A stretch of DNA of 64,000 nt from a bacterium. GTDB taxonomy: Bacteria; Bacillota_I; Bacilli_A; Izemoplasmatales; UBA1188. The notes under the pieces were generated by a model. The model saw only the letters and a list, made by a program, of their open reading frames with translations. It did not search any database and was not told the DNA's origin. The stretch is from positions 8,679 to 72,678 of the forward strand of contig JAFXYB010000022.1 in the NCBI GenBank assembly GCA_017541975.1, read 5' to 3'. A program made the translations under genes and the position numbers. Numbering within the stretch: position 1 is the stretch's first letter; the number at the start of each line of letters is the position of its first letter. This document shows, one piece after another, positions 1 to 42,733 of the stretch.

Positions 1-3000
1 GTTAGTCTTAAATTAGACAAAAACGAATTTACCTTTACATCAGGCGGTACTACATTAAAAGGTACTTACTCTTTTGATGGCACAAATCTTGTTTTAACAT
101 TTGAAGGTGAAACATCTAGCGTTAATGTTACATTTAGTGCTAATACTGTTTCATTCACTTATAAGGGTCAAGCATATACTCTATATAGAAAAGTTAACTT
201 TACTGTTAGCTTTAGTGGAGCAACTGTTCAAGCCCAACAAGTGCAAAATGGTCAAAAAGCAACTAAGCCTCAAAATCCAACAAAAGATGGGTATTACTTC
301 CTTGGTTGGTACAAAGATAGTAACTTTACTACTCCATTCGACTTTGATACTGAAATCATCACAGCCGATACAACTATCTATGCTAACTTTGATGTAAAAT
401 CAGCATCTACTGAAGAATTCACAGTAACTTTCAATACTGGTGAAGGTGGACCAACAGTTAATAGTGTTGAAACAACAAACAACACTGTTTACAATTTACC
501 AACAGTAGAAGTAACTGGTAAGACATTCCTTGGATGGTGGGTATCATACTATAATGATGCTACTAAGCTTTCATATCAATTTGAATCTGGAATGAGATTA
601 TATGAAAACACTACATTATTTGCTGTTTATGGAAGCGATAATATAGCTGTTTCTGTAGTTGGAAATACAATAAAATGGGACTCTAAAGGTGTTGGTAAAT
701 CTTACACTGTTACTATTACAAAAGAAGGCGAAGAAGAACCTGTTTCAACAAAGAGTGTTTCTACTACTAGTGATACATTCAACTTTGCTAATGAAGTTCC
801 TGGTAATTACACAGTAACTGTTGCTACTGGTTCAAATACTGGTACTGCTTACGTTTTAAATAAAGGTTTAGCAAAAGTTTCTAAATTCAGTGTTGATGAC
901 TTCACATTAACTTGGAATAAGGTTCCTAATGCAACTGATTATGCATTATCAATCAATGGCGGAGCTGCAACTCCTCTTGGAGATGTTAATACATTTGATT
1001 TCACAAATGTTCAAATGGTAGAAGATGGATTAACATTCGTTGTTACTGCATCTGCAAACAATTATTTAAGCAGTGTTTCAAGTGCATACAATGTTAAGAG
1101 AAGTTTAGGCAAAGTTACAACAGTTAATTATGATCCACAAACTCAAAAATTAACATGGAATGAAGTAACTGATGCTGATAGATATAGAGTTGAAATAACT
1201 TCTGGTGATAATGTCTATAAATTCGATGCAACTACAAATGAATTTGCAATTGATAACTTCTATGGTGCATTATCATATTCAGTTACGCCTTTAAAGGTTG
1301 GCTATTATTCAGAAGCTAAGACTGGTACATTAAATAAAACTGAACTTGCAACTCCAAAGAACGTTGCAATCATCGGTAATGATGTGAAATGGGATGCCGT
1401 TCAAGGCGCAACATCATACACTGTAACAGTTAATGGTACAACTTACACTGCAGAAACTAATAGTTATACTCTTGCTGCTGATGTTATTAGCGGATCTAAT
1501 AGCTTCACAGTTACAGTTAAAGCTAATGGCGCTAACTCAACTTCATCACTCGTTTCTGAAGCTGTAACAATCAACAAAGGTGGAGTTACACAAATTACTT
1601 ATTCTAATCATGTAATTTCTTGGAATTCAATTCCTGGTGTAAGTTCATTCACTGTAAAAGTTGATAACGGCGAAGCTGAAACTGTAAATGATAATAAGGT
1701 AACTAAAGTTATTACAGCTGGCGCTCATACAATCGCAGTTGCTCCAGCTGGTGGCGATTATTTCTCATATCAAGTTACTGTTTATACTTTAACTTTCAAT
1801 ACACTCGGTGGAATAGAAGTTGAAAATTACTATTATGTTGCTGGTGATTCAATTCCAGATATCACTACAACTTATACAGGTTATGATTTTGTTGGCTGGT
1901 TCGCAACTCAAGCTAAAGCTCAAGAAGGCACACAAAAATATAACGAAGTTACATTTGTAACTGGTGATTTAACACTCTATGCAGGATGGCAAGGAAAAGA
2001 ATATACAGCAACATTCAACTATACTGATCTCGGTGTAGAAGGTACTGCTAATCAAACTGTAGTATTTGGTGATCAATTCACATTACCAGTTGCAACATCT
2101 AGCTCTGTACTCAAAGCATTCTATGGATGGTATAGCGAACCAAACAATGCTGGTATAAGATATACAGACCAAAATGGTAAATCTAAATTTGCATGGAGAG
2201 ATGCTGCTAATACAACACTCTATGCTGGTTGGATTGACGTATTCAAGTTCACAGAATTAAATGATGATACATATGCAGTAACTGCTAGTGAAGGTGCACT
2301 TTACTTAAATGAAGTAACAATCCCTGATAAATATAACGGCAAGACTGTATCATTAATCGAAAGCTATGCATTCAAAGATTATGAGAACTTAACTAAGATT
2401 AATATCCCTAACTCAATTGTTACTATTGAAACTGGTAACTCAGGTCCAAACGGAACTGGTTCAGCATTCAAGGGCTGTAAGAATTTAGTAGGTTTATATA
2501 TCTATGCTGTTGATGGTGTTAAACCAGAAGATGTATTATATTCTTCATCAAATGGTTCATTAGTATACAAGAACAAAACAGCAAATGAAGTTGAATTAAA
2601 GTGGATTCCATATGGAACTGTATCAGGAACATATACTATTCCTGAAGGCGTAACAGCTATTCCAATCAATACATTCCAAAGCTGTACTGAAATTACCGGA
2701 CTTGTTATTCCAGCATCTGTAACAACTATCAATGAAGGTGCATTCATTGGTGCATATCAAATTGCTGAAGTAACATTCCAAGCTGCAGCTGAAGGTACAC
2801 AAGAAAAAGCTCTTAACCTTGGCGATAATATCTTTGGAAATAACAGTAAATTAACTGTATTAAATCTTCCAATGAGAGTTGACAACTTCTCAGCTACTAC
2901 ACTTCCATCACTATCAGCATTAACAGAGGTTAACTTTGTTGGTACATTCGAAAATTCTAAATATAAATCAGTTAATGGTGTTGTTTACAATACTGCTGGT

Positions 3001-6000
3001 ACAACTTTAATTTACTATCCACGTGGTCGTGAAGAAACATTCGTTATTCCAACAGGCGTAACAACAGTTGCAACAAGAGCCTTCGAAGAAGCAAGATACT
3101 TAAGAGGTATCACTATTCCAGGACACGTAACAACTATTGAAGATTACGCATTTAGAACATGTAGTAGATTAGATGCAATTACATTCCAAGGTACTGCAAA
3201 TGATCCAAGCTTATCAATTGGTGTTGAAGCATTCTACAATGCTGGTAACTTCTCAACAGTTCTTACTGAACTCGTTCTTCCAGCTAACTTACAAACAATT
3301 GGTAAATCAGCATTTGGTAACATGGTTGCTATTTCATCAGTTAAGTTATATAGCGTTGCTGAAGAATTAAATTTTGCTCCAGGAGCATTTGGTTCTAATG
3401 TAAGTTCTAACCCTGTATTCTATATCACTCATCTCTTCATGAGCAAAGATGTTCATACATTCAATGTTGCTGGTGTATTCGGTTCAACTAAACTAGAAGT
3501 ATTAGAAGTTGAAGAAGGTAACCAAAACTTCAAGGTTATAGATGGTGTATTATACAGTGCTGATATAACTGCAATTCTATACTATCCAATGACTTTAACA
3601 GGCGCCTTCACACTTCCAGCTACAATCACTACAATTGGTGATAGAGTATTCGAACAAAAGAAGATGCCTTCAATTACAATTCCAGCATCAGTAACTACAA
3701 TTGGTGCTTATGCATTCACTAACTGTCCTAACCTCGCATCTGTAACATTCACTGATGGCGGTACAGACGCACTTACAATCGGCAATTATGCATTCTCTGG
3801 CTGTAAGTTATTAACTACAATGGATCTTCCAGATAGAGTATCTACAATTGGTGCTAAAGTATTTGAAAATTGTACAGGACTTACAACTGTGAATATTGGT
3901 AGTGGCGCGTCATTCACAACTGAATCTACAACTATAACAATTGGTAGAACAAGATACACATTCAATACCATTACAGCATTTGATGGCTGTACTAGCCTAA
4001 CTGCAATCAATGTAGCAGCTAACAATACTAAATACTATTCAGCTAGTGGCGTATTATGTGAATACATCCTTGATAACAATAATGAACCTACAGAATTCGT
4101 TAAAGTTGATGTATGTCCATTGGCTAAAACAGGCGCTCTCGTATTACCAAACACTGTAAAAGTTATTGAATATAATGCATTCTATAATCAAAATGGTTTA
4201 ACAAGCATTTCATTTGCAGAAGGTGTTACTTCACTCGAAATTAAACAATATGCATTCAGAGATGCTAAGACTGTTACATCTATAACACTTCCAAGTGTAA
4301 TTTCAACAATTGAAAGTTATACATTCACTGGCTGTAAAGCTTTAACTTCATTCACAGTTCCTAAATCTGTTACATCAATCAAGAGTTCAGCATTCACTCA
4401 ATGTGTTGGTCTAACAACTATCAACTTTGAAGAAGGTGGAACTCAACCACTAAGATTTGAAGATGGCGACTACAAAGGAAGAGCTGAATCATATGGTGAT
4501 TCTGCTGAAAGTGAAGAAGCAGGCGATCAGACACCTATCTCAACATTCGCTGGATGCAATGGTATTACAACTTTAGTATTACCTGAAAGAACAACTTATG
4601 TTGGTACATCAGCATTCGGTGGCATGATGGGCTTAACTAGTGTATCATTCCCATCAACAATCACTTCAATTGGCGATTGGGCATTCTCATTCTGCCAAAA
4701 TCTTGAAACTGTAACATTTGCACCAAATACTACAGGTTTAACTAATATTGGTCAAGGCGCATTCAGAGGTAGATATTCTTATCAACCAACTAAGTTAAGT
4801 TCAATCAATCTCCCTAGTGGTAACTATAAAATTGGTGATGGTGCATTCAAGTACACTTCACTCACTAATGTAGTAGTTCCAGCAGGCGTAACTGAAATTG
4901 GTAAATATGCGTTCTATGCTGATCAACTCTTAACAGAAGTTAGTCTACCTACAAGCTTAATATTCATTAGAGAATATGCATTCTCAAATGATACAGCTTT
5001 AACAACAGTTACTATTGCAAATAATGCTACACTCCAAGGTGTTGGTGCTTATGCATTTAAGAACACTGGTATAACTTCTATAACATTCCCTGCTACTATT
5101 TATCAAATTGGTCAAGAAGCATTCTATAACTGCACTGATCTCGCATCAGTAACATTCGCTTTAAACGGTTCTGGTAAATCTAACCTTGCTCAAATAGGTA
5201 CTAGAGCATTCGCTAATACAGCAATCACTTCATTCACATTCCCTGAATCAGTTGATACTGAAGGCGCTAGCATCAACATCGCTCTTGGTGGCAATGTAAC
5301 TTTAGTAGCTAATGGTGGCGGTGGTTCTTCACAAGAACTCCATTGTCCTAAGTGCGGTGCAACCGTAACTAAGGATGATAAAGTATGTCCTGAATGCCGT
5401 AGTGAATTACACTTTGACGAAGGCGGCGAAGAAGGCGGCGGCAAAGAAGAAGGCGGTAAAGAAGACGGAAAAGGCCTAAAGGGTAAAGAAGAAGAAGGCG
5501 GCAAGGAAGAAGAAAAACCAGGAGAAGGTGGCGAAGGTGGAGGCAGCCAAGGTGGCGGCGGAAGCAGTCAATTCGTAAGCTCTCCAAGCTACTTATTCGA
5601 AGGTTGTAAGAAACTCACTACTTTAGAGCTCTCATCATCTGTTACTTCTATCGATTGCATGCTCGTTAACTGCCCAGCTTTAACAACAGTAACAATCGCA
5701 GCTGGTAACCCTAACTTAAAGGTTGATACTAATACTAATAAGGCTATCGTAAACGTTGCTGGTACAGCAATTAGAAATGTATATGGTAAACTTACTGGTA
5801 CATTCACTATTCCAGCTGGTATTACTGAAATTTCATCATATGCATTCGCTGGACAAACTGAATTAACTAAGATCGTTATCCCAAGTTCTGTATATGAAAT
5901 TGGCGAATATGCATTCAAGAATTGTATTAATCTTGTTGAAGTAGAATTCGCAAACGGTTCAGCTCTCACTAAGATTGATAATTATCTATTCCAAGATTGT

Positions 6001-8832
6001 AGAAGTCTAACAACTATTAATGTACCTAACAGTGTTACTGATATTGGTAACTATGCATTCGCTGGTTGTGCTTCACTCACTACTCTCCCTGTAACAAGTT
6101 CAGTTACTAAAGTTGGTGATTATGCATTTGCAAACTGCGGATTTACAACATTAACAATTCCATCAACTATTACAACATACGGTACAGGCGTATTCCAATA
6201 CAATAGCAAGTTAACAACTGTAACAATTGGCGAAGGTGCTACTGTAACTGGTGCTTATATGTTTGCTAACAACAAAGCATTAGCTAATATCACATTACCA
6301 AGTTCATTACAATTCTTAGCTGAAGGTATGTTCCAAAATTGTACAGCACTCGTTAGTGTATCTGCTACTAACATCTATCGTTTAGGTGGTAATGCTACAA
6401 CAGCTGGTACCGCTAACAACTTTGCAGGTAGAGTATTCCAAGGATGTACAGCTTTAACAAGTGTAGAATTCGGTAGCAATTTCTTCGCAATCGGTTCATA
6501 TACATTCGCAGGATGTACTTCACTCACAAGTTTCACTATCCCTAATTCAGTACAAAACTTAGGTGAACATATCTTTGATGGTTGTACAAATCTTGTATCA
6601 TGTACTTTATCTAATGCATGTACATACTTAGCTGGATCAATGTTCTACAACTGTACAAGCTTAAAATCTATTTCAATGCCTGCATCTGTAAGAAGAATTG
6701 GTGGTACTTATACAACATCTGATACATCTAATATCACAGCAACATCTTCCGGAAATGTATTTAACGGATGTACTAGTCTCTCAACTGTTACATTCTCAGA
6801 AAATGTTGTGAATATTGGTTATGGTGCATTCATCGGATGTACATCATTAAAAGAAGTTACACTTCCACCTAAGCTACAACGTATTTCAACAAGTGCATTC
6901 GAAAGTTCTGGCGTTGAAGTTGTAACATTCACACAAGAAACTCTACTCAATCAACTTGGTAACTATACATTCAGATATTGTGAAAACTTAAGAGAAGTAA
7001 ATGGATTCAAGACTAATACAAATAATAGTTTAGGTTTTGAAACATTCAACGGATGTACATCACTTGCATCATTCAAGATTCCAACAAATACTTCAACTAC
7101 TGGTAATGGTACATTCAAGAATTGTACTTCATTAACAGAATTAGACTTCAGTGCAACTAATATCTATCAATTAGGTTCAAGCGTTTGTGAAGGATGTGTA
7201 AATTTAAGCAAGTTATTATTACCTGCAACATTCCCACAAATTGCAACAAATAACTTTACATTCGCATCTAAGTCATTCATGGGTTGTACAAGCCTTGAAG
7301 AAATCACTCTTCCATATTTGCCAAACGGAAAAGTATTCAACTTCAGTACTTACGCATTCTATGGCAGTGGATTAAAGCAAATCAACTTACCAAGCAATGT
7401 AATGAAATATAACATCAACCAAACATCAGCTCAACCTACTGGTCATGGTATCGATTATGCAGCATTCAACAATTGCCCAGATCTAGAATTAACTATTGAT
7501 CCTCAAAACAATCAATATATGTTAGTAGATGATATGTTCATCGTAAGATTCAATGACTGGCAAAGTAAAGCTCTTGTTGCATGTCCTCCTACAATTGTTA
7601 GTGTTGTAAATGCTAGTGGCGATGTTACTATTCCTGAAGGATTATTAATTACAGGTTATGCATTCTCTGGTTGTGAAAATATCACTTCATTAACTATCCC
7701 AGCAACAATGACTACAATAACTAGCCAAGCATTCTCTGGATATCTTGGTGGAAATATCATTATTCCTGAAGGTGTAACAACTATTTCATCACAAGCATTC
7801 TATAATTGTGCAAATATTACATCTATTACATTACCTTCAACTATTACAAGTATCGCTGACTATGCATTCCAAGGATGTACTAGCCTTAAATCAATAGTAA
7901 TCCCTGAAGGTGTTACTTCAATCGGTAACTATACATTCCAAGGATGTACTTCACTTGAAAGTATAACAATCCCTAGCTCAGTAACATCAATTGGTAACTA
8001 TGCATTCCAAGAATGTACTAGCCTAACATCTATTACATTCCCAGCTGGTTTAACATCAATTGGTAACCATGCATTCGAAAATACTGGTTTAACATCAGTA
8101 ACAGTTGGCTCAGGCGTTAGAGTTGGTACCTTCAATGATGGTCCATATTCTACAGATGGTTATGTATTCGCAGGATGTACAAGTTTAACAAATGTTACAT
8201 ACAATGCTTCAAGCATCAGCAGTAAACATATGTTTGATGGATGTACAAATCTAACTTCAATTACATTTGGTTCTCCACTCACTCAAATTGATGGTTATGC
8301 ATTCTATGGATGCTCTAAGTTAACATCATTCACATTTGCTGAAGGATTAAAGAGCATTGGTGCTTATGCATTCAGTGGAACTGGTTTAACTACAGTTGCT
8401 CTCCCAGCAACCTTAACTAAACTCTGCGATGGAGCATTCATGAACTGTACAGCTTTAACATCAGTTACACTCTCTAGTGGTCTCAAGTACATCGGTAGTT
8501 CAAGTATTACAGCACTCGATGCAACATCTAATGATGGTGGCGTATTCGAAGGATGTACAGCACTCACTACAGTTACACTCCCAAGCACATTATTCGCTAT
8601 CAACGGACGTACATTCGCTGGATGTACATCAATTGCTAGCATCGTAATCCCTGAAAGTGTATCATTCGTTGGTAACGGCGCATTCGCAGGTTGGACTTCT
8701 AGTCAACATGTAAATTCAGTTCAAGACGAATATACAATCACAGGCTTATGGGAATATGTAACAACTTCTACAGGCCTATCTGCATATAACGCTGATTCTG
8801 AAGCTACATTCACATTCGGTTATACAGCTTAA
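1..8832 (+). CDS. Giant BspA-type leucine-rich repeat (LRR_5) surface protein with N-terminal InlB B-repeat (Flg_new) and FN3-like domains; 5'-partial
   Basis: Frame 1 is open from base 1 (VSLKLDKNEFTFTSGG...QQVQNGQK), so the 241 start is artefactual. InlB-like repeats (PTKDGYYFLGWY...TTIYANF), FN3-like units (LATPKNVAI..VKWDAVQGATSYTV), then dozens of LxxIxIPxxVTxIGxxAFxxC repeats. Ends TAA at 8832 with no C-terminal TM. Confidence 0.93.
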   Translation, partial: VSLKLDKNEFTFTSGGTTLKGTYSFDGTNLVLTFEGETSSVNVTFSANTVSFTYKGQAYTLYRKVNFTVSFSGATVQAQQVQNGQKATKPQNPTKDGYYFLGWYKDSNFTTPFDFDTEIITADTTIYANFDVKSASTEEFTVTFNTGEGGPTVNSVETTNNTVYNLPTVEVTGKTFLGWWVSYYNDATKLSYQFESGMRLYENTTLFAVYGSDNIAVSVVGNTIKWDSKGVGKSYTVTITKEGEEEPVSTKSVSTTSDTFNFANEVPGNYTVTVATGSNTGTAYVLNKGLAKVSKFSVDDFTLTWNKVPNATDYALSINGGAATPLGDVNTFDFTNVQMVEDGLTFVVTASANNYLSSVSSAYNVKRSLGKVTTVNYDPQTQKLTWNEVTDADRYRVEITSGDNVYKFDATTNEFAIDNFYGALSYSVTPLKVGYYSEAKTGTLNKTELATPKNVAIIGNDVKWDAVQGATSYTVTVNGTTYTAETNSYTLAADVISGSNSFTVTVKANGANSTSSLVSEAVTINKGGVTQITYSNHVISWNSIPGVSSFTVKVDNGEAETVNDNKVTKVITAGAHTIAVAPAGGDYFSYQVTVYTLTFNTLGGIEVENYYYVAGDSIPDITTTYTGYDFVGWFATQAKAQEGTQKYNEVTFVTGDLTLYAGWQGKEYTATFNYTDLGVEGTANQTVVFGDQFTLPVATSSSVLKAFYGWYSEPNNAGIRYTDQNGKSKFAWRDAANTTLYAGWIDVFKFTELNDDTYAVTASEGALYLNEVTIPDKYNGKTVSLIESYAFKDYENLTKINIPNSIVTIETGNSGPNGTGSAFKGCKNLVGLYIYAVDGVKPEDVLYSSSNGSLVYKNKTANEVELKWIPYGTVSGTYTIPEGVTAIPINTFQSCTEITGLVIPASVTTINEGAFIGAYQIAEVTFQAAAEGTQEKALNLGDNIFGNNSKLTVLNLPMRVDNFSATTLPSLSALTEVNFVGTFENSKYKSVNGVVYNTAGTTLIYYPRGREETFVIPTGVTTVATRAFEEARYLRGITIPGHVTTIEDYAFRTCSRLDAITFQGTANDPSLSIGVEAFYNAGNFSTVLTELVLPANLQTIGKSAFGNMVAISSVKLYSVAEELNFAPGAFGSNVSSNPVFYITHLFMSKDVHTFNVAGVFGSTKLEVLEVEEGNQNFKVIDGVLYSADITAILYYPMTLTGAFTLPATITTIGDRVFEQKKMPSITIPASVTTIGAYAFTNCPNLASVTFTDGGTDALTIGNYAFSGCKLLTTMDLPDRVSTIGAKVFENCTGLTTVNIGSGASFTTESTTITIGRTRYTFNTITAFDGCTSLTAINVAANNTKYYSASGVLCEYILDNNNEPTEFVKVDVCPLAKTGALVLPNTVKVIEYNAFYNQNGLTSISFAEGVTSLEIKQYAFRDAKTVTSITLPSVISTIESYTFTGCKALTSFTVPKSVTSIKSSAFTQCVGLTTINFEEGGTQPLRFEDGDYKGRAESYGDSAESEEAGDQTPISTFAGCNGITTLVLPERTTYVGTSAFGGMMGLTSVSFPSTITSIGDWAFSFCQNLETVTFAPNTTGLTNIGQGAFRGRYSYQPTKLSSINLPSGNYKIGDGAFKYTSLTNVVVPAGVTEIGKYAFYADQLLTEVSLPTSLIFIREYAFSNDTALTTVTIANNATLQGVGAYAFKNTGITSITFPATIYQIGQEAFYNCTDLASVTFALNGSGKSNLAQIGTRAFANTAITSFTFPESVDTEGASINIALGGNVTLVANGGGGSSQELHCPKCGATVTKDDKVCPECRSELHFDEGGEEGGGKEEGGKEDGKGLKGKEEEGGKEEEKPGEGGEGGGSQGGGGSSQFVSSPSYLFEGCKKLTTLELSSSVTSIDCMLVNCPALTTVTIAAGNPNLKVDTNTNKAIVNVAGTAIRNVYGKLTGTFTIPAGITEISSYAFAGQTELTKIVIPSSVYEIGEYAFKNCINLVEVEFANGSALTKIDNYLFQDCRSLTTINVPNSVTDIGNYAFAGCASLTTLPVTSSVTKVGDYAFANCGFTTLTIPSTITTYGTGVFQYNSKLTTVTIGEGATVTGAYMFANNKALANITLPSSLQFLAEGMFQNCTALVSVSATNIYRLGGNATTAGTANNFAGRVFQGCTALTSVEFGSNFFAIGSYTFAGCTSLTSFTIPNSVQNLGEHIFDGCTNLVSCTLSNACTYLAGSMFYNCTSLKSISMPASVRRIGGTYTTSDTSNITATSSGNVFNGCTSLSTVTFSENVVNIGYGAFIGCTSLKEVTLPPKLQRISTSAFESSGVEVVTFTQETLLNQLGNYTFRYCENLREVNGFKTNTNNSLGFETFNGCTSLASFKIPTNTSTTGNGTFKNCTSLTELDFSATNIYQLGSSVCEGCVNLSKLLLPATFPQIATNNFTFASKSFMGCTSLEEITLPYLPNGKVFNFSTYAFYGSGLKQINLPSNVMKYNINQTSAQPTGHGIDYAAFNNCPDLELTIDPQNNQYMLVDDMFIVRFNDWQSKALVACPPTIVSVVNASGDVTIPEGLLITGYAFSGCENITSLTIPATMTTITSQAFSGYLGGNIIIPEGVTTISSQAFYNCANITSITLPSTITSIADYAFQGCTSLKSIVIPEGVTSIGNYTFQGCTSLESITIPSSVTSIGNYAFQECTSLTSITFPAGLTSIGNHAFENTGLTSVTVGSGVRVGTFNDGPYSTDGYVFAGCTSLTNVTYNASSISSKHMFDGCTNLTSITFGSPLTQIDGYAFYGCSKLTSFTFAEGLKSIGAYAFSGTGLTTVALPATLTKLCDGAFMNCTALTSVTLSSGLKYIGSSSITALDATSNDGGVFEGCTALTTVTLPSTLFAINGRTFAGCTSIASIVIPESVSFVGNGAFAGWTSSQHVNSVQDEYTITGLWEYVTTSTGLSAYNADSEATFTFGYTA
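7861..8082 (+). repeat. 69-bp period tandem LRR-unit repeats
   Basis: tatgcattccaaggatgtact-like starts at 7861, 7930 and 7999, with a degenerate fourth at 8068; 23-aa units. Confidence 0.8.
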
Positions 8833-8850
8833 TTGATTATTGCTATAAAT

Positions 8851-8881
8851 ATCCTAGGGGTTAATCGCCCCTAGGATGTTT
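8851..8881 (+). terminator. Stem-loop after giant LRR gene (leaky terminator or mRNA-stabilising hairpin)
   Basis: Perfect 10-bp stem ATCCTAGGGG-ttaatcg-CCCCTAGGAT followed by only a short gtttc tail. Confidence 0.65.
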
Positions 8882-8915
8882 CACGTAAAAAGGCGAATAA
8901 AATAAGGAGGGAAAT

Positions 8916-9929
8916 ATGAATTATCAAAAAGATTTTAAAAATTTATATAATGCGTTTTTGAAAAATGCCATAAAAAAATCATTATTTTATTCATTATTTA
9001 TTAGTTTTGCTGTTCTATTTGTAATATCTTTTACCTTCTGGATTGTTGATGTAAAACAGTTCTGGATAGCATTCATCGTTTTCGGCGCTTTAGAAGCAAT
9101 ACTTTTCTCAGTATTCTTTTATTTCTTTAGACCAACAGATAAAAAGTTCGCAAAAGAATTAGACTCTCTCGGTCTAGAACAAAGAGTAATAACCATGTAT
9201 GAATATCAAGATGATGATTCGCTCATGGCTAAAGTTCAAAGAGAAAACGCAATAGAACATATAAACAGGTTTGATAGTAAGTTATTAAAACTTGTTATAC
9301 CAGTAATACTCCTTGCATTTATGATTTCAGCATGTGTTCTTGGAGTATCTGCGAGTACTGTTTCAGTATTAAGCGCAACTGGTGTTATTAAGAGTGGCAG
9401 AGACACTATTATTGATATTATCCCTCAAGAAGATGTATATTATTCAGTTACTTATACCGCTAAAAAGGGCGGAATAATTGAAGGTGAACTCACTCAAACT
9501 ATTAAAGAAGGTGAAGATGCATCGCCAGTAATCGCTATCGCAAGCCATGGTTATATTTTTGTAACTTGGTCAGATGGTGTAAGAGATCCATATAGACTCG
9601 ATTTGGGTGTTAATAAAACAATTGATGTCTTCGCAAGTTTCATCACCATTGATGAATATATGGAATTAATGAAGAATCCAGGCGAACCTGAAGTTCCAGA
9701 AGAACCTGCAATGGGTAATATCCCAATTCCAAAGGATGAAGGTGAAGGTGACCCAACAATGCAAAGGTATGATGAAAATGCCCAAATAATTGACGGCGAA
9801 ACATACTATGGTGAAAGTGTATTCGATGAATATCAAGCTGATATGATTGAAACACTTGCACAAGACACAGAAATGTCTACCAATACTAAAAAAATAATCA
9901 ACGATTATTTTGATACTATTGAAAAATAA
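8916..9929 (+). CDS. MoxR-operon membrane protein (3 TM, InlB-like domain, acidic C-terminus)
   Basis: RBS AAGGAGG; two N-terminal TM helices then LDSLGLEQRVITMYE..QRENA; third TM; AKKGGIIEG..GYIFVTWSDG repeat-type domain; C-terminal KIINDYFDTI resembles tails of MoxR-associated proteins. Confidence 0.75.
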   Translation: MNYQKDFKNLYNAFLKNAIKKSLFYSLFISFAVLFVISFTFWIVDVKQFWIAFIVFGALEAILFSVFFYFFRPTDKKFAKELDSLGLEQRVITMYEYQDDDSLMAKVQRENAIEHINRFDSKLLKLVIPVILLAFMISACVLGVSASTVSVLSATGVIKSGRDTIIDIIPQEDVYYSVTYTAKKGGIIEGELTQTIKEGEDASPVIAIASHGYIFVTWSDGVRDPYRLDLGVNKTIDVFASFITIDEYMELMKNPGEPEVPEEPAMGNIPIPKDEGEGDPTMQRYDENAQIIDGETYYGESVFDEYQADMIETLAQDTEMSTNTKKIINDYFDTIEK

Positions 9930-9946
9930 AATAGGGAAATAAAAAT

Positions 9947-10942
9947 ATGATTAATGAAAAAGATATCAATGATTTTAGTCTAAAAATAAAAGAAATATAT
10001 GAACAAATCAATAGAGACGTTATCGGTATAAAAGAAGTAATCGAAGGAACAGTTGTTGCGATGATTGCTGGTGGTAACGTACTACTAGAAGGTGTTCCTG
10101 GCGTTGGTAAAACACGTTTAGTTAGAACCTTAGGTAGAGTATTTGGACTACCATTTTCAAGAATCCAATTTACTCCAGACTTAATGCCAGCTGACGTTAC
10201 AGGTACAAACATGGTTGTTAAAGATGATAGTGGTAAAACATCATTTGAATTCCAACCAGGCCCAATCTTCGCAAGTATCATTCTTGCCGATGAAATAAAC
10301 CGTGCCACACCAAAAACACAATCAGCTCTTCTTGAAGCGATGCAGGAACATAAAGTTACTGTAATGGGCGTTTCAAGACCACTTCAAGAACCATTCTTCG
10401 TTCTTGCAACCCAAAACCCAATTGAACAAGATGGTACATATCCTCTACCTGAGGCTCAAATGGACCGTTTCATGTTCAAGATCTTAGTACCAAACCCAGG
10501 TCTTGAAGACTTAATGACAATCGTCAACTTAACTCAAAAGACTATGGCAGAAGTAGCTGATACCGTTTGTAGCGGTGAAGAACTCTTAAAGATGAGGGAA
10601 ACTGCAAACAATATCCCAGTTGCAACTGATGTATTAACTTATGCAATGATTTTAGTTGCTGCAACACATCCAACTGGTGAATATGCCTCAGAAACAGCTA
10701 AAAAATATCTACGTTTAGGTGCATCTCCACGTGCTGGTCAAGCATTTATCAGTTGTGGTAAGGTAAAAGCCTTAATTAAAGGAAGATATAATGTTGCATA
10801 CGAAGATATCGATGAACTTGCAACAATGATTCTTCGTCACAGAATCAAACTCAATTTTGAAGCTGTTGCCGATAGAGTATCTCCTGATACAATTATCGAA
10901 GAAATTATCAAAGAAGTTAGAGCAAAATATAAAATAAAATAA
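9947..10942 (+). CDS. moxR: MoxR family AAA+ ATPase
   Basis: Walker A GVPGVGKT, RIQFTPDLMPAD, Walker B ILADEINRATPKTQSALLEAM, ATQNPIEQDGTYPLPEAQMDRF, GASPRA. Confidence 0.97.
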   Translation: MINEKDINDFSLKIKEIYEQINRDVIGIKEVIEGTVVAMIAGGNVLLEGVPGVGKTRLVRTLGRVFGLPFSRIQFTPDLMPADVTGTNMVVKDDSGKTSFEFQPGPIFASIILADEINRATPKTQSALLEAMQEHKVTVMGVSRPLQEPFFVLATQNPIEQDGTYPLPEAQMDRFMFKILVPNPGLEDLMTIVNLTQKTMAEVADTVCSGEELLKMRETANNIPVATDVLTYAMILVAATHPTGEYASETAKKYLRLGASPRAGQAFISCGKVKALIKGRYNVAYEDIDELATMILRHRIKLNFEAVADRVSPDTIIEEIIKEVRAKYKIK

Positions 10943-10976
10943 TACTCTAGTAATCTAGAGAAGTGGAAGTGATATT

Positions 10977-11876
10977 ATGGAACTATCATATATTAATGAC
11001 GCATTTTTTAGTCGTCTTGAATCTTTGTCTTTCAATTTAAAATCATATTTAAGCGGATATTTCGGCGGAAAACATCTGGTCAAAACATTTGGCCAGACCG
11101 TCGAATTTGCCGATTTTAGAGATTATCAGCTTGGTGATGATATTAGAAGAATCGACTGGAATTTATATAGTAGATTCGAAAAATTCTTCATCAGGCTTTT
11201 TACTGATGAAAGACAAATGAAAGTATCAATATTCCTAGATGTATCTGCATCTATGGGAAAGGATAACCCTAAAAAAGCTGCCTATGCAACTGCATGTGCT
11301 GCCGGTATTGGATATCTTGCAATACATAATATGGATAAAGTTTCCTTCAATATCATGAAAGAAGAAACATGCGAAAACAAGTATGGTACAATCGTTGGTA
11401 AAAACCAATTTTTCCGTTCGATTGAAGTACTTGAAAATATCACCTTTGAGGGTGAAACCGATATCACAAAGTGTATTCTAAATTCTAATGATGATGGAAC
11501 TGCGAATGGACTTACTGTGATTATTTCAGATTTCCTAACTGAAGGAAACTGGAAAAAGGCAGTCGATTACTTATTATATAAGAAAAGACAAGTTTTATTG
11601 CTTCAAATATTAACACCAGAAGAACTCGAACCAACATACACTGGTAGAGTTAATTTAATCGACTCAGAGTCTTTGGATATCTCAGATCCAAAGAATATGA
11701 GACTTAGAATCAATATTGGTCTTCAAAGCGCGTACCAAATGGCTCTTGAGGAATTCAAAAAAGATATTTCTGACTATGCTAAAAAAAGAGAAGTAGATTA
11801 TATCTCAATAGATACAAGCGAAGCCATTGAAAGTGTGCTTTTTAAACAATTATTAAAGGTAGGAATGATGTCATGA
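10977..11876 (+). CDS. DUF58 domain protein
   Basis: GQTVEFADFRDYQLGDDIRRIDWNLYSR signature, LDVSASM, IISDFL; typical MoxR partner. Confidence 0.95.
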   Translation: MELSYINDAFFSRLESLSFNLKSYLSGYFGGKHLVKTFGQTVEFADFRDYQLGDDIRRIDWNLYSRFEKFFIRLFTDERQMKVSIFLDVSASMGKDNPKKAAYATACAAGIGYLAIHNMDKVSFNIMKEETCENKYGTIVGKNQFFRSIEVLENITFEGETDITKCILNSNDDGTANGLTVIISDFLTEGNWKKAVDYLLYKKRQVLLLQILTPEELEPTYTGRVNLIDSESLDISDPKNMRLRINIGLQSAYQMALEEFKKDISDYAKKREVDYISIDTSEAIESVLFKQLLKVGMMS

Positions 11877-13825: not shown

Positions 13826-13836
13826 GAGGTGAAGAT

Positions 13837-19505: not shown

Positions 19506-19524
19506 TTAGGAGGATGGTAATCTT

Positions 19525-24459: not shown

Positions 24460-24472
24460 AAGGAGTGCACTT

Positions 24473-31813: not shown

Positions 31814-31821
31814 TTTTAAGT

Positions 31822-31860
31822 AGTTTACGCCCATAAAAAAACAATGGGCGTAAACTTTTA
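31822..31860 (+). terminator. Rho-independent terminator after protease gene
   Basis: Perfect 13-bp stem AGTTTACGCCCAT-aaaaaaaca-ATGGGCGTAAACT followed by T-rich sequence. Confidence 0.8.
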
Positions 31861-31933
31861 TATCATTTTTTTAATGATATATTGTATAATTATTAATAGA
31901 ATGTTTGAAAGGAGGAACAATAGTTTTAGTTTT

Positions 31934-33457
31934 ATGAAATCAAAAATAAAGTTTTTTAAAATTATTATTTCTTTTTTCATGATTTTTATGCTCACAAGTT
32001 GTAAAGATAATAGCCTCTTTAATAAGAGAAAGGAAGAAGGATACAAAATCTCAGTAAGATATGAAGCTAACGGAGGATCATATCTCGATAGAGAAGGTGT
32101 AACTCTAATAGATATGTTTAATCCATCTGACTACGTGGCTGATCAAGATGGCACTATTCACATAAAACTTGTAGAACCAACTGATCCAAGAAGACCATCA
32201 GGAGGAAGAGAAGGTATCTATATCACAAGAACCAATTATTTCCTTGTTGGATGGTATAAAGAAAAAACCCTAAAGACAAATACTGATGGTAAACCAATTA
32301 ATGAAGATGGCGAACCACTAGTATTAAAAGACAATAAATATTATCTTGAAAGCGATAATGAAACTCAATCCGAAGCACTATATGAATATTCTGGATATTG
32401 GGATTTCGAAAACAATACTCTAGACTATAACCCTGAGTCAGGAGAAATGGAACTTACATTATATGCTGTATGGTCAAAGTATTTCGAATTCAATTATTAT
32501 TACCAAGATGGTGATGAATGGAAGTATTTAGGTAGTACCACATTTGACTATAAGACTACTAACCAAGAAGGTTCTACGACTTCTGATAAGGACACAATAT
32601 ATTTACCAAGATATGTAGATGGTGCGATGAACTATAATCACAGATACCAAAACAATTCCATCTATACATTCCCTAAAGTTGAAGGTTATACCTTCAAAGA
32701 AGCCTATACAGATATGAATCTAACAGAAAAAATAGAAGATTCATTCGAACATACAGGTTCTATAGACTATGAAACAGGTAAGGCAATTAACCCAGTTCAA
32801 AACATCTATATAACTCTAGATAAAGGCGAGTATTACTACATTAAAAACGCAAGTGAACTCGTGGCTAATCCTAACTTAAATGGCATCTATATCATTGAAA
32901 ATGATTTAGATTTCACTGGTCTTGAATGGCCAACAGTATTTAGCCTTGGTGAATTCAAAGGCAAGATGTATTCGAAAGATTCAGGGAACTTTAAGTTATC
33001 AAATATTGAAATCTATCACTCAAATGATTCTGCAAAATATGGTGGAATCTTTGGAAGCATTAATGAAGATGCCTTAATCAAAAATTTAACATTTGAAAAT
33101 ATCACATTAGATCTTGCCTATGTAGGAAGAAGAAATAGAGATACTAACTTCGGTTTATTCTCTGGATATATAAACAATAAAAATTCCATCGATAACGTTA
33201 AATTATCTGGAGAAGTGAGAATTGGACCAATCACCCTTGGTGAAGACTATTCAATCAATTTAGTCGCAAATGGCGACAGTAGCGCCAACATAACCACATT
33301 ATCTACCATCCATCTTTCCATCTACGGAACCGATCAAGGCGATGTCTACAACTACACTATAAATCCTGATCAAGTAGAAATTGATGAATCAGGTTACGTT
33401 ACTCTTGTCTCTGTGACAGGACTCAAAAAACCAAATGAAAAATATGTAATTCAATAA
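31934..33457 (+). CDS. Lipoprotein with InlB-like N-terminal region and GLUG/beta-helix-like C-terminal region
   Basis: Likely start ATG 31934 (MKSKIKFF..MLTSC lipobox); the ORF-track start 31844 lies inside the terminator. YEANGG..YFLVGWY..LTLYAVW; YIIENDLDF..W..FKG..GGIFG..IKNLTFENI pattern. Confidence 0.78.
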   Translation: MKSKIKFFKIIISFFMIFMLTSCKDNSLFNKRKEEGYKISVRYEANGGSYLDREGVTLIDMFNPSDYVADQDGTIHIKLVEPTDPRRPSGGREGIYITRTNYFLVGWYKEKTLKTNTDGKPINEDGEPLVLKDNKYYLESDNETQSEALYEYSGYWDFENNTLDYNPESGEMELTLYAVWSKYFEFNYYYQDGDEWKYLGSTTFDYKTTNQEGSTTSDKDTIYLPRYVDGAMNYNHRYQNNSIYTFPKVEGYTFKEAYTDMNLTEKIEDSFEHTGSIDYETGKAINPVQNIYITLDKGEYYYIKNASELVANPNLNGIYIIENDLDFTGLEWPTVFSLGEFKGKMYSKDSGNFKLSNIEIYHSNDSAKYGGIFGSINEDALIKNLTFENITLDLAYVGRRNRDTNFGLFSGYINNKNSIDNVKLSGEVRIGPITLGEDYSINLVANGDSSANITTLSTIHLSIYGTDQGDVYNYTINPDQVEIDESGYVTLVSVTGLKKPNEKYVIQ

Positions 33458-33472
33458 ATGGAGGAATATAAG

Positions 33473-36064: not shown

Positions 36065-36077
36065 TTAAGGAGCATTA

Positions 36078-37067: not shown

Positions 37068-37077
37068 GGAGGTTTAT

Positions 37078-38139: not shown

Positions 38140-38151
38140 GGTGGAATAGTT

Positions 38152-39441
38152 ATGAGTGAAAGACATTATTTAACCGGAAAAGAAATTCGACAAATAGCTA
38201 AAGACAACGCAAAAGAAATGCGTCTTTTGGAAAAGAATAAAAATAGAAAATGCAAAGAAGAAGAATTCTTATCGACAATGAATGATCCAAACAACATTCT
38301 TGAAGTTGAGGATCTCCATTCTTACTTTTATACTGACCAAGGTGTTGTTAAAGCCGTTAATGGTGTAAGTTTTTCTATTCCAATTAATTCTACCATCGGT
38401 GTAGTTGGAGAATCTGGTTGTGGTAAGAGTGTTACTGCAATGTCTATTATGAGACTCCTTCAGGGCCCATCTGGTCAAATTAAGAGTGGTTCTATTAGAT
38501 TTAGAGCTAATGACTTTAAGAGGGATACACTTGGTAATTATATTCCTATCTATGAATTAGATGATAGTGGCAATATCTTAAAAGAAACCATTACCGATAA
38601 GAAGGGTAATACTATCGTAGTAGATAAAGTTAAAAAAGACGAATCTGGACTTCCACTATATGAAAGAGAAGAAAAGGTCTATGATATCGCTAAGATGCCA
38701 ATAAAAGAAATGTATCGTGTTCGTGGTAGACAAATCGCAATGGTTTTCCAAGAGCCAATGACATCTCTTAATCCAGTATTTACTATCGGTAATCAATTAG
38801 ATGAAGCATCAATGCTTCATATTCCAAACATAACTAAAGAACTCGCTAAAAAGCGTTCTATTCATATGCTTGATATGGTTGGAATCGCATCACCTGAGAG
38901 AATCTACGATGCATTCCCACATGAACTCTCTGGTGGTATGCGCCAAAGAGTTATGATTGCGATGGCACTGGTTGCTGAACCAAGACTCATCATCGCCGAT
39001 GAACCAACCACAGCGCTCGACGTCACAATTCAAGCACAAATACTCGATCTATTTAATGATTTAAAGAAAAGAATTAATGGATCAATTTTACTAATTACCC
39101 ATGATTTAGGTGTAATTGCGGAAATGGCTGACTATGTAATTGTTATGTATGCAGGACGAGTAATCGAACAAGGTACAGCTACTGAAATATATAATAATCC
39201 ATGTCACCCATATACTATTGGCCTACAAAAATCTAAGCCAACAATGGATTCTACAAAGGACGAGCTTTATAACATCAAAGGAAACGTTCCAAACCCTATT
39301 GATATGCCTAATTATTGCTACTTCAAAGAAAGATGCGATAAATGTATAAATAAGTGTTCTGGAGATTATCCAAAGATGGTTAAAATAAGCGATACTCACT
39401 TTGTTGCGTGCCATTTATTTGAGGAAAAAGAAAATGAGTGA
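38152..39441 (+). CDS. oppD: Oligopeptide ABC transporter ATPase with N-terminal extension and internal insertion
   Basis: GESGCGKS, FQEPMTSLNP, LSGGMRQRVMIA, IADEPTTALDV, C-terminal Cys cluster CYFKERCDKC..VACH. Confidence 0.95.
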   Translation: MSERHYLTGKEIRQIAKDNAKEMRLLEKNKNRKCKEEEFLSTMNDPNNILEVEDLHSYFYTDQGVVKAVNGVSFSIPINSTIGVVGESGCGKSVTAMSIMRLLQGPSGQIKSGSIRFRANDFKRDTLGNYIPIYELDDSGNILKETITDKKGNTIVVDKVKKDESGLPLYEREEKVYDIAKMPIKEMYRVRGRQIAMVFQEPMTSLNPVFTIGNQLDEASMLHIPNITKELAKKRSIHMLDMVGIASPERIYDAFPHELSGGMRQRVMIAMALVAEPRLIIADEPTTALDVTIQAQILDLFNDLKKRINGSILLITHDLGVIAEMADYVIVMYAGRVIEQGTATEIYNNPCHPYTIGLQKSKPTMDSTKDELYNIKGNVPNPIDMPNYCYFKERCDKCINKCSGDYPKMVKISDTHFVACHLFEEKENE

Positions 39442-40552
39442 AGAAATAAATAAAAGTGTAAACGAAATCGATTTTTCCAATTTTGATGATGCACTACAAG
39501 AAGAAAAAGAAGAACAAATAAGAAATGCTAATTACGAGAAAGATAAAACTCTTCCTCCTGATCCTGATTGTCTACTTGAAGTAAGACACATCAAGAAGTA
39601 TTTCACTTTAAAAAAGACATTATTAGGTAAGCCTATTACCGAACTTAGAGCTGTTGATGATGTCTCTTTTAAGGTTTATCCTGGCGAAACTCTCGGTATT
39701 GTTGGTGAATCTGGTTGTGGTAAAACCACAATGGGTAGAACAATTCTTAAACTCTATGACCCTACAAGCGGGCAAATCTTCTTTGAAGGCAATGATATCG
39801 CAAATTATACTTCAAAAGAGATGAGGCCTCTTAGAACTAAGATGCAGATTATCTTCCAAGATCCATATTCATCACTTCCACCAAGACAAACTGTAGGTGA
39901 TATTTTAAGTGAACCAGTTAAAGTTCATAATATTGTTCCAAAAGAAAAAACTAAAGAATATGTATTAAATCTGATGGACCAATGTGGTCTTCGTGATTAC
40001 TACTATGAAAGATATCCTCATGAATTCTCAGGTGGCCAACGTCAAAGAATTTGTATCGCAAGAGCGCTTTCTGTAAACCCTAAATTTGTAGTATGTGATG
40101 AACCTGTATCTGCACTTGATGTTTCCATTCAAGCACAAATAATAAATCTTCTTAAGAAACTTCAAAAAGAAAGACAATTGACATATCTCTTTATTTCACA
40201 TGATTTATCAGTAGTAAAATACATCTCTGATAAAATATGCGTAATGTATCTTGGAAATATGGTAGAATATGGCAAGAATGAAGACATATTTAGAAATCCA
40301 CTTCACCCATATACTATCTCACTATTTTCAGCAGTACCTAACCCTGATCCAAATAAAAAATCAAAAAGAATCATTCTTAAAGGCGATATTCCAAGTCAAG
40401 TAAATCCACCAAAAGGCTGTAAATTCTCAACACGTTGTCCTAACTGTATGGAAATATGCAAGCACATTGCTCCAGAATATAAGGAAATTGAGAAAGACCA
40501 TATTGTTGCGTGCCATTTATTTGATGATGTAAATAAACAAGATGAAAAATAA
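39434..40552 (+). CDS. oppF: Oligopeptide ABC transporter ATPase
   Basis: Likely start ATG 39434 after GAGG; GESGCGKT, FSGGQRQRICIARAL, CDEPVSALDV, CKFSTRCPNC..VACH. Confidence 0.95.
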   Translation: MSEEINKSVNEIDFSNFDDALQEEKEEQIRNANYEKDKTLPPDPDCLLEVRHIKKYFTLKKTLLGKPITELRAVDDVSFKVYPGETLGIVGESGCGKTTMGRTILKLYDPTSGQIFFEGNDIANYTSKEMRPLRTKMQIIFQDPYSSLPPRQTVGDILSEPVKVHNIVPKEKTKEYVLNLMDQCGLRDYYYERYPHEFSGGQRQRICIARALSVNPKFVVCDEPVSALDVSIQAQIINLLKKLQKERQLTYLFISHDLSVVKYISDKICVMYLGNMVEYGKNEDIFRNPLHPYTISLFSAVPNPDPNKKSKRIILKGDIPSQVNPPKGCKFSTRCPNCMEICKHIAPEYKEIEKDHIVACHLFDDVNKQDEK

Positions 40553-40802
40553 AGAAAAAAAGAAAGATAAAGAAAAGGTTGTTTATTATGACGATGGAAG
40601 CACAATTGCCAATATGGATGGGGTAAAACAAAAAAGTATCATTCCAAAAACTGATAATAATAGACCTAAATCAACAGGAAGAGAAAAATTAAAAACTTTC
40701 TTTGAAGCATTTAAGATGATGCTTATTCCCACTGGTGTTGCATTACTAGTTTTATTAATTTTATATCTAATTTTTATGCTTATAGGAAATTACGCTAATT
40801 AG
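40542..40802 (+). CDS. Small hypothetical membrane protein
   Basis: Overlaps oppF end; basic N-terminus, YYDDGSTIANMDGV motif, C-terminal TM helix. Confidence 0.75.
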   Translation: MKNKEKKKDKEKVVYYDDGSTIANMDGVKQKSIIPKTDNNRPKSTGREKLKTFFEAFKMMLIPTGVALLVLLILYLIFMLIGNYAN

Positions 40803-42714: not shown

Positions 42715-42733
42715 GTTCGAGAGGCAGTAATTT

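Follow-up and report, generated by a model that had tools for sequence, protein, structure and literature searches.

A 64-kb stretch of contig JAFXYB010000022.1 (assembly GCA_017541975.1, a member of the Izemoplasmatales; referred to as the window) carries a long string of co-oriented genes for surface lipoproteins, a MoxR/von Willebrand factor A (vWA) system, a giant cell-envelope proteinase, and an Opp importer. We divide this locus into module A (i.e., a giant leucine-rich repeat [LRR] lipoprotein, a transmembrane [TM] protein, MoxR, DUF58, BatA-vWA, and double-vWA proteins, an LRR lipoprotein, and an Flg_new lipoprotein), module B (the LRR-tailed cell-envelope proteinase), and module C (the Opp importer). 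Comparison across genomes showed a strong one-directional association, in which the presence of module A implies that of module B, with frequent colinearity in a tight gene string; the locus is not a chance neighborhood. With moderate confidence, we interpret it as a single unit in which a surface capture platform, proteolysis, and peptide import would together feed the cell on external protein.

The association was examined in a sample that had not been selected for the locus, i.e., 151 genomes drawn evenly from the order of genome G042. Nine of these genomes carry the LRR-type double-vWA gene (37 to 49% identity, full length) and 23 carry the protease, which is found in all 9 module A carriers and in 14 of the 142 noncarriers (Fisher one-sided P = 9e-9, uncorrected for relatedness). 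Four of the six genomes that have only weaker double-vWA relatives (25 to 28% identity) also have the protease. We also searched, as whole genomes, the 30 genomes behind loci that had been located through module A. All 30 contain a protease homolog (43 to 72% identity; frames of 2300 to 2700 aa in 29 genomes) and a homolog of the substrate-binding protein (SBP) of the importer. Module A, the protease, and the SBP are colinear on one contig at the spacing of the window in 14 carriers, share one contig within 25 kb, differently ordered or oriented, in 5, and lie on one contig with the protease ~58 kb from the double-vWA gene in 1; in the remaining 10, the modules are on different contigs. The protease and SBP genes are ~4 to 9 kb apart on one contig in 29 of the 30. 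Among 40 relatives of the window genome (G000), the double-vWA gene occurs in three of the eight other genomes of the genus (G003, G005, and G006), and only these three congeners have a strong protease match together with a full-length match to this SBP. The five vWA-less congeners (69 to 97% complete) have neither a protease nor a full-length SBP match, and two of them show weak N-terminal matches. G006 contains the complete block, giant LRR gene to oppF, in the same order (54 to 97% protein identity). A loss of synteny in relatives, which an earlier, sequence-only reading of the window had named as the observation that would speak against it, was therefore looked for in both near and distant genomes, and the locus was found to be colinear in G006 and in 14 of the 30 distant carriers. 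The gene-neighborhood link that this reading had proposed among the MoxR module, the protease, and Opp is likewise borne out, in that every searched genome with the LRR-type module has the protease.

Module A itself is conserved in gene order. Species-representative genomes were scanned with an alignment of the double-vWA protein, which returned 247 relatives, and the best 80 loci (37 to 94% identity) were kept. Most of these are titled as uncultured Clostridia metagenome-assembled genomes (MAGs) from animal and human gut, a few are labeled Christensenellaceae, Candidatus Scatosoma, or Anaeroplasma, and the G+C content of the loci ranges from 0.29 to 0.61. Their neighborhoods were mapped by phmmer with the window proteins, and the counts refer to loci with enough flanking sequence. 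An ortholog of the LRR lipoprotein lies directly 3' of the double-vWA gene in 77 of 77 loci, the Flg_new giant gene is the second gene after it in 64 of 68, and the BatA-type gene is directly 5' of it in 66 of 67. The MoxR-DUF58-BatA order is kept in 49 of 54 loci, the TM gene has an ortholog in 49 of 49, and all 46 loci with sufficient flank have a giant LRR gene upstream of the TM gene. Four of the exceptions (L032, L038, L046, and L072) lack MoxR and DUF58 between the TM and BatA-type genes, and in L046 the two genes are located after the Flg_new gene, so that the ATPase pair appears to be repositionable within the cluster; the fifth exception is a split-ORF (open reading frame) artifact. 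Three loci titled Prevotella sp., Parasutterella excrementihominis, and Acidiphilium sp. (L020, L053, and L055) carry this Firmicutes-type cluster as well. L020 shares its gene layout with the Anaeroplasma-titled L019, at near-identical coordinates and scores, and the three titles are probably binning or labeling errors.

LRR_5 domains are so abundant in the window genome (126 matches in 21 frames on 14 contigs) that adjacency alone means little; it is the conservation of order elsewhere that carries the observation. The window genome also contains two MoxR genes and a second SBP_bac_5 locus. The second MoxR gene (AAA_3; contig C14, L004:11860-15167) has neighbors that differ from those of module A: it is followed by genes for 361- and 407-aa proteins without a Pfam family, and an 826-aa LRR_5 protein is encoded four genes upstream, beside ftsY-ylxM-ffh.

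The link between modules B and C was assessed on metagenome contigs, which were scanned with an alignment of the protease N terminus; at least 453 relatives were found, of which the best 80 were retained. The following counts overstate independence, since many of the contigs are near-duplicates that come from different samples. Opp adjoins the protease in 44 of the 47 loci with both flanks covered, either downstream behind a lipoprotein of the 507-aa type or upstream as oppABCDF, and the complete order of module A, protease, and Opp is present in 14 of the 47. Upstream of the protease (53 loci), we found module A in 17, Opp in 16, and other genes in 20.

The protease has a signal peptide, an S8 domain with a PA insert, fn3_5 and Big_2 domains, an LRR_5 region, and a C-terminal TM helix followed by KKKKRV. 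The S8 domain (PF00082; 148.8 bits) has an intact triad of D226, H300, and S633 in the contexts DTG, HGTH, and GTSMSAP, respectively, with PA (PF02225) at residues 488 to 540 and fn3_5 (PF06280) at residues 721 to 850. Residues 206 to 868 align to C5a peptidase (7edd; E = 6.7e-65), and matches to the solved structures of C5a peptidase, SpyCEP, and other cell-envelope proteinases range from E = 7e-65 to 1e-50. The analogy with PrtP and Opp drawn in the sequence-only reading is thus well founded as far as the homology and the D-H-S triad are concerned. The enzyme contains no LPXTG-like motif, its match to the NCBIfam LPXTG-peptidase family SGO_0316 reaches 243 bits (cut-off, 1400), and no sortase was found in the window genome (82.5% complete). 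Pfam scans of the neighboring genes revealed no PrtM-like rotamase. The protease is the only S8 gene found in the window genome, and an LRR-like tail is present in 49 of 49 full-length homologs examined, whatever their neighbors.

The 507-aa lipoprotein gene abuts the SBP gene (0-nt gap), and its orthologs sit between the protease and SBP genes at related loci. Its AlphaFold2 model is confidently all-beta (pLDDT, 87.1), with no PDB fold match at E <= 0.001 and only an InlB B-repeat-like piece; on the basis of this model, the protein may represent a new fold family tied to Opp. All parts of the importer are present (i.e., PF00496, two copies of PF00528 with OppC_N, and two copies of PF00005 with PF08352). 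Because the NCBIfam Opp4A match in the SBP lies below its cut-off, we can only infer that the importer is specific for peptides. As judged by homology, modules B and C form a conserved protease-Opp module in which all catalytic and transport parts are intact.

Of the module A proteins, the giant LRR lipoprotein starts at an ATG 177 nt upstream of the window and is 3002 aa long (lipobox VTGC); lipoboxes are also present in the 930-aa LRR, Flg_new, and 507-aa proteins and in the SBP. The 337-aa TM protein matched no Pfam or NCBIfam family over its cut-off. MoxR (PF07726; 206.5 bits, cut-off 27) has an intact Walker A motif (GVPGVGKT) and a mean column identity of 78% across 34 orthologs, and the bpMoxR family (PF20030) scores only 36.3 bits in the same protein. 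The DUF58 protein (PF01882; 107.5 bits), encoded 34 nt behind moxR, has a DxSxS motif (D88, S90, and S92) that is invariant across 37 orthologs. Both vWA membrane proteins have two N-terminal TM helices with a basic loop between them, a large middle part, and one C-terminal TM helix. The BatA-type protein scores over the cut-off for VWA_2 (42.9 bits) and just under it for BatA (25.3 bits; cut-off, 25.9), and it carries the metal ion-dependent adhesion site (MIDAS) motif D95xSxS. Borrelia BB0173 has the same BatA-vWA three-TM layout and was shown experimentally to face outward from the inner membrane (PMC5700661).

The ectodomain of the double-vWA protein contains two MIDAS sites. In an alignment of 50 sequences, the MIDAS residues D80 and S82 and D437, S439, S441, T512, and D541 are invariant, as are R36, R39, and R41 in the loop and the juxtamembrane cytoplasmic tail R935-KFKFKWPHE944. 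The AlphaFold2 model (pLDDT, 82.5) comprises two vWA domains with beta-rich domains between and after them, and a Foldseek search with this model returned mostly vWA adhesins (e.g., SpaC, PitA, PTMP1, and integrins). In sequence, the vWA domains are nearest to B. thetaiotaomicron BatB and a B. fragilis aerotolerance-related protein (23 to 24% identity; 3ibs and 4jdu), and the fold matches BatB 3ibs with a TM-score of 0.69 on the target. A complex prediction that combined MoxR and DUF58 with the cytoplasmic tail (30 residues) of the double-vWA protein scored 0.01 (mark, 0.32) and speaks neither for nor against binding. Flg_new is the sole Pfam family in 26 of 26 orthologs of the Flg_new lipoprotein, and a domain search detected no enzymatic domain in any of the 26. 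The comparisons show module A to be a conserved, operon-like set with vWA domains predicted to be external and cytoplasmic parts that are invariant.

The distribution of the block points to horizontal transfer between deep lineages, i.e., between walled, Clostridia-labeled organisms and wall-less ones, since the protease is more conserved than RpoC, the double-vWA tree is nested, and the occurrence is patchy. In an RpoC search of 20 genomes (two without an RpoC match), RpoC of the window genome was 95% identical to that of G006, 64% identical to that of the same-order G012, and 52 to 55% identical to those of eight carriers with full-length matches. The catalytic region of the protease and the SBP are 62 to 72% and 54 to 68% identical, respectively, to those of the 14 colinear carriers, and the protease is only 74% identical to that of the congener G006. 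In a FastTree phylogeny of 50 double-vWA sequences (a quick method, with submitter labels, rooted on the paralogous G012 and G026 forms), the genus of the window and an Anaeroplasma-titled MAG form a clade with 100% support that is nested in Clostridia-titled sequences. What the window genome and G006 share begins exactly at the giant LRR gene and ends with oppF, and their flanks are unrelated; comparison of the flanks with congeners that have no block revealed only one shared gene (EIIC-EAL, with G002). We argue from the shared stretch in G006 that the block moves as one unit. The carriers are all MAGs with small genomes (1.3 to 2.6 Mb); the window genome is 1.18 Mb. No penicillin-binding transpeptidase was found in the window genome or G006, and four other carriers have two transpeptidase genes each. 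The genus of the window looks wall-less, with a surface dominated by LRR lipoproteins.

In the interpretation that we prefer, the membrane-anchored proteinase, of the PrtP/C5a-peptidase kind with an LRR tail, would cut proteins at the cell surface, and the 507-aa lipoprotein, the extended OppA, and OppBCDF would bind and import the resulting peptides. The two BatA/BatB-type proteins are predicted to display three MIDAS vWA domains outside the cell and would be co-translated with the giant LRR, 930-aa LRR, and 1644-aa Flg_new lipoproteins. In the cytoplasm, a MoxR ring and the vWA-like DUF58 adaptor would act on the invariant loop and tail of the vWA proteins. The vWA ectodomains may hold the LRR and Flg_new lipoproteins, or position them, as a capture-adhesion platform that ATP-driven MoxR remodeling, by analogy with NorQ/NorD, might assemble or reset. 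Captured protein would then pass to the neighboring protease, whose products Opp would take up, and module A would be an optional enhancer of the protease-Opp pair. Because protease-Opp often occurs without the MoxR module, we regard that module as an optional add-on that the proteolytic system does not require. The earlier proposal of a protein-utilization machine resembling a polysaccharide utilization locus (PUL) is partly supported: the conserved linkage holds, and substrate capture by the LRRs and assembly or energizing of the complex by MoxR/vWA are candidate roles.

Several observations weigh against this interpretation. The protease directly follows the Flg_new gene in only 21 of the 52 loci anchored on module A; 36 of the 53 protease-anchored loci have no module A directly upstream, and 14 of the 23 protease-positive genomes in the evenly drawn sample have no LRR-type module A. 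Two of 16 genomes of a second family (G012 and G026; double-vWA identity, 35%) contain only the TM-MoxR-DUF58-BatA-double-vWA core, without the LRR genes, the protease, and this Opp; the core is followed by other surface proteins (Flg_new-CotH, Big_3, and Cthe_2159) in G026 and by small unknown proteins in G012. Five genomes (G043, G050, G051, G062, and G068) hold two to three full-length double-vWA copies and one to two protease loci; the extra copies are probably extra copies of module A. The co-occurrence is uncorrected for phylogeny, and the carriers may represent only a handful of clades whose members all have the protease. Within the window, a terminator and promoter-like boxes set the Opp half apart, and the Flg_new gene contains a nonsense codon, so that the locus may be partly decaying.

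Many of these points would also be expected if the locus comprised two independent systems, i.e., a module A that serves as an adhesion device (for host, feed particles, or microbes) and a nutritional protease-Opp pair, which became neighbors by joint transfer and retention. An independent adhesin cassette that travels with a nutritional module is the main rival explanation, and we consider it rather unlikely. It fits the surplus of module A copies over protease loci in the five genomes above, in which module A was duplicated independently of the protease, and agrees with the many genomes and loci in which protease-Opp stands alone, with the carriers in which the modules lie on different contigs (10 of 30) or in another one-contig arrangement (6 of 30), with LRR_5 surface proteins being the default in the window genome, and with vWA fold matches that are mostly to adhesins. 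Against it, module A was never found without the protease (9 of 9 genomes in the sample, 30 of 30 carriers, and 3 of 3 congeners), the protease gene lies 13 nt behind the last module A gene with neither a hairpin nor a terminator between them, and the colinearity recurs in 14 of the 30 carriers.

A more ambitious version of the unit that we prefer seems doubtful to us. It would be an integrin-like, ATP-reset machine in which MoxR/DUF58 grips the invariant cytoplasmic tail and loop of the two vWA proteins and switches the MIDAS between hold and release, so that the lipoproteins seize external proteins or entire foreign cell surfaces for the protease and Opp. For monoderms, such a machine would be the protein-feeding equivalent of a PUL, and as a cassette of 41 kb it would pass between gut bacteria that are walled and Clostridia-type and others that are wall-less and Mollicutes-like.

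It is improbable, in our judgment, that module A serves to mature or anchor the giant protease as a stand-in for PrtM, with the LRR lipoproteins as a scaffold. Module A occurs only in protease-positive genomes among those searched, the tightly packed operon in the window ends with the protease gene, no PrtM-like rotamase was seen among the neighbors, and MoxR/vWA pairs are described as maturation factors for specific client complexes (PMC9976466). However, proteases of the same length and with LRR tails occur without module A in 14 of 23 genomes, which indicates that the enzyme is generally independent of it, and the partners that the vWA genes keep most faithfully are the LRR (77 of 77) and Flg_new (64 of 68) lipoproteins, compared with 21 of 52 for the protease.

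We give equally little credence to a contact weapon or grazing device, the prey-surface variant of the sequence-only reading, in which the LRR lipoproteins would attach to the surfaces of neighboring bacteria, protozoa, or host cells, so that the protease could shave off surface proteins and Opp could harvest the peptides. The small genomes of the carriers, the genus without penicillin-binding proteins, and the window genome without sortase fit dependent lifestyles, and BspA-type LRRs are known to bind cells and proteins. Outside the genus, the labeled relative nearest to the block is a MAG that bears the title Anaeroplasma bactoclasticum, a species name associated with bacteriolysis. Pfam and NCBIfam scans of the locus, however, detected no lytic enzyme, pore-former, or toxin domain, and the data do not separate cell surfaces from soluble protein as the substrate. 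Finally, a classical Bat-type envelope or aerotolerance stress system that lies among surface-protein genes by happenstance is highly improbable: the MoxR-DUF58-BatA-vWA gene set is that of the Bacteroides, Leptospira, and Borrelia bat operons (PMC5700661), and the vWA domains are closest in sequence to BatB and the aerotolerance-related protein, but the scans revealed no partner of the TPR or BatD type, strict conservation is seen instead for the LRR and Flg_new lipoproteins, and the patchy occurrence (9 of the 151 genomes sampled from one order; 3 of the 8 congeners) is unlike that of a core stress function.

The nearest described systems are the bat operons, the bifidobacterial PFNA cluster, and lactococcal PrtP/Opp. 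With Bat-like operons (B. fragilis batA-E with moxR and DUF58, Borrelia bb0170-bb0176, and Leptospira batABD), the locus has in common a MoxR-proper AAA_3 protein, DUF58, and three-TM proteins with a MIDAS-type vWA domain predicted to face outward (the BatA match itself falls just below its cut-off). In contrast to them, none of the 16 locus proteins matched a TPR, SH3, or BatD family in Pfam and NCBIfam scans, one vWA protein is doubled to 959 aa and has extra beta domains, a new 3-TM protein leads the operon, and the operon is joined to LRR_5 and Flg_new lipoproteins. The LRR-type module was found only in proteinase-bearing genomes among those searched, and the host is a monoderm that looks wall-less, which would place the vWA domains at the cell surface. 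The PFNA cluster (pkb2, fn3, aaa-atp, and duf58, plus tgm) likewise combines MoxR-proper and DUF58 with a large surface adhesion-type protein in gut Gram-positive bacteria (PMC8430577). It differs in that it encodes a Ser/Thr kinase along with a transglutaminase-like membrane protein and lacks vWA membrane proteins, LRR proteins, a protease, and Opp.

In Lactococcus, surface proteolysis feeds the Opp importer. The enzyme here shares the S8/PA/fn3_5 architecture and the triad with lactic-acid-bacterial PrtP/lactocepin (with PrtM and Opp) and with streptococcal ScpA and SpyCEP. It differs from the PrtP/Opp systems in that the protease and Opp are physically linked (44 of 47 of the best metagenome loci), the enzyme ends in ~800 aa of BspA-type LRR and a TM anchor rather than LPXTG, an all-beta lipoprotein lies between the protease and OppA with no PrtM-like rotamase seen, and OppA is extended to 868 aa. 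The likeness to Bacteroidota PULs is one of logic only (i.e., co-encoded surface binders, a surface hydrolase, and an importer); here, there is no outer membrane, the presumed substrate is protein, the importer is of the ABC type, and Pfam scans of the window detected no SusC/SusD-type family. NorQ/NorD, CbbQ/CbbO, and RavA/ViaA also consist of an AAA+ MoxR ring and a MIDAS-dependent adaptor of the vWA fold, and the binding mode of NorQ/NorD was proposed to hold generally among MoxR-vWA pairs (PMC9976466). Whereas such couples act on cytoplasmic or membrane enzymes, the candidate clients here are membrane vWA proteins with external working domains. The MoxR-vWA-beta-propeller ternary conflict system is not matched, since MoxR is of the AAA_3 type and the Pfam scan of the locus detected no beta-propeller family. 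Consistent with the earlier statement that the combination lacks a described precedent, literature searches found no account of a system that unites MoxR/vWA, BspA-type LRR proteins, a proteinase of the cell envelope, and Opp; MAG-catalogue supplements were outside the scope of these searches and might list such clusters.

The genes of the locus run unbroken on the plus strand from the first base of the window to ~41.5 kb (Table 1), with protein domains assigned by a Pfam scan of the window ORFs, and all the elements named in the sequence-only reading are present in this orientation.

Table 1. Genes and signals of the locus, in positions of the 64-kb window
Feature	Position	Strand	Domains or remarks
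Giant LRR_5/Flg_new lipoprotein	1..8832	+	Pfam: LRR_5, 19 stretches; Flg_new, 3
Perfect 15-bp hairpin without U-tract, between giant LRR and TM genes	8847..8881	+	
337-aa membrane protein, first gene of MoxR operon	8916..9929	+	~3 TM helices
MoxR-type AAA+ ATPase (AAA_3 + AAA_lid_2)	9947..10942	+	Pfam E 1.5e-61
DUF58 protein, cytoplasmic	10977..11876	+	Pfam E 7e-31
BatA-type membrane vWA protein, 650 aa	11873..13825	+	BatA, VWA_2; TM helices 2 N-terminal + 1 C-terminal
Double-vWA membrane protein, 959 aa	13837..16716	+	Two vWA domains, Pfam
LRR_5 lipoprotein, 930 aa	16713..19505	+	Pfam; lipobox LTSC
Flg_new giant lipoprotein, 1644 codons	19525..24459	+	One in-frame TAA at 23533-23535
Cell-envelope proteinase, 2446 aa	24473..31813	+	Peptidase_S8, PA, fn3_5, Big_2, LRR_5
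Intrinsic-terminator-like hairpin + U-rich tract, then promoter-like -10 boxes	31822..31872	+	
507-aa lipoprotein	31934..33457	+	No family over cut-off; lipobox LTSC
Extended OppA-like substrate-binding lipoprotein, 868 aa	33458..36064	+	SBP_bac_5
OppB	36078-37067	+	BPD_transp_1
OppC	37078-38139	+	BPD_transp_1, OppC_N
OppD	38152-39441	+	ABC_tran, oligo_HPY (OppD/OppF)
OppF	39401-40552	+	ABC_tran, oligo_HPY (OppD/OppF)
86-aa ORF, overlaps oppF end	40542..40802	+	One TM helix
Strong terminator, closes co-oriented run	41447..41480	+	15-bp stem + T-tract

From 8916 to 31813, intergenic spacing ranges from -4 to 39 nt, and the start codons of the BatA-type and 930-aa LRR genes each overlap the preceding stop codon by 4 nt. 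The tight packing described in the sequence-only reading thus holds, with a maximal gap of 39 nt rather than 34 nt. Some of its gene boundaries have to be revised. The gene at 8916 is that of the TM protein and not MoxR, which starts at 9947. The supposed separate 294-aa ORF (23575 to 24459) is the tail of the Flg_new lipoprotein, in frame with 19525 to 23535 behind the single TAA; in L016, L017, and L019, the frame is continuous (1636 to 1641 aa), with E, N, or R at the position of the TAA, which may be a strain variant, an error of assembly, or a sign of recent decay. A terminator stem contains the ATG at 31844, and the 507-aa lipoprotein starts at M31 of that ORF (31934). The position 40802, taken previously as the end of the locus, is merely the stop of the 86-aa ORF, and the strong terminator of the unit lies farther downstream.

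The giant LRR gene is separated from the TM gene by 83 nt (8833 to 8915; RNA fold, -25.3 kcal/mol), and the hairpin in this gap could serve for processing or stability, or else act as a weak terminator. After the protease gene, 120 nt follow. The terminator previously noted at 31822 is present (31822 to 31856; 13-bp stem, 9-nt loop, and a U-rich tract) and was missed by a terminator pattern scan because of its 9-nt loop; with the -10 boxes behind it, the suggestion that the Opp half may be transcribed separately remains apt. Promoter-like patterns occur in the window at the level of shuffled sequence and are uninformative as counts. No Rfam family, and hence no cyclic di-GMP riboswitch, was detected in the window or the 12 kb upstream. 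Among the public sequencing runs listed, 20 contain part of the stretch, 6 of them at least half of its words, and two are RNA or RNA-guessed runs (shares of 0.05 and 0.16).

Small ORFs follow oppF, including a 128-codon lipoprotein frame (41046 to 41432; lipobox LASC) with an in-frame TAA at codon 33 (41142 to 41144), the second such TAA in the window. No homolog of this lipoprotein was found in the 60 kb examined of G006 or elsewhere in the window genome. Recoding of TAA as the cause of the two in-frame TAAs was rejected, as TAA terminates 20 of 30 ordinary ORFs here. Next to the surface-protein locus, positions 41578 to 44832 contain genes for cyclic di-GMP turnover, i.e., a GGDEF membrane protein and a PTS_EIIC-EAL gene that is split into 152- and 552-aa ORFs in different frames; the latter is a single 706-aa frame in the congener G002 (82% identity), and these genes are not kept beside the block in G006. 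Farther downstream, genes for a DUF5662 protein and a radical SAM/SPASM protein overlap (56770 to 58141) and are a possible peptide-modification pair. An ECF-type sigma factor gene overlaps a gene for a 493-aa vWA-domain protein (58192 to 60155), and these two may form a sigma/anti-sigma-like pair with a vWA sensor.

MoxR/DUF58/vWA operons of the Bat type are widespread, and we know of no defined clients for them. The fixed tie of this operon to three lipoproteins and one giant protease provides concrete candidate clients and a testable function; if the integrin-like reading were true, they would be the first defined client set for Bat/MoxR-proper operons. The locus occupies ~3% of a ~1.2-Mb genome, in uncultured rumen and gut bacteria, and is therefore probably central to the life of these organisms. 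Provided that the protease-Opp pair, with its optional capture module, is what drives the breakdown of protein, the locus would have a bearing on nitrogen turnover in the rumen and gut. Its apparent crossing between walled and wall-less lineages would, in addition, exemplify a complex surface system that works without a cell wall.

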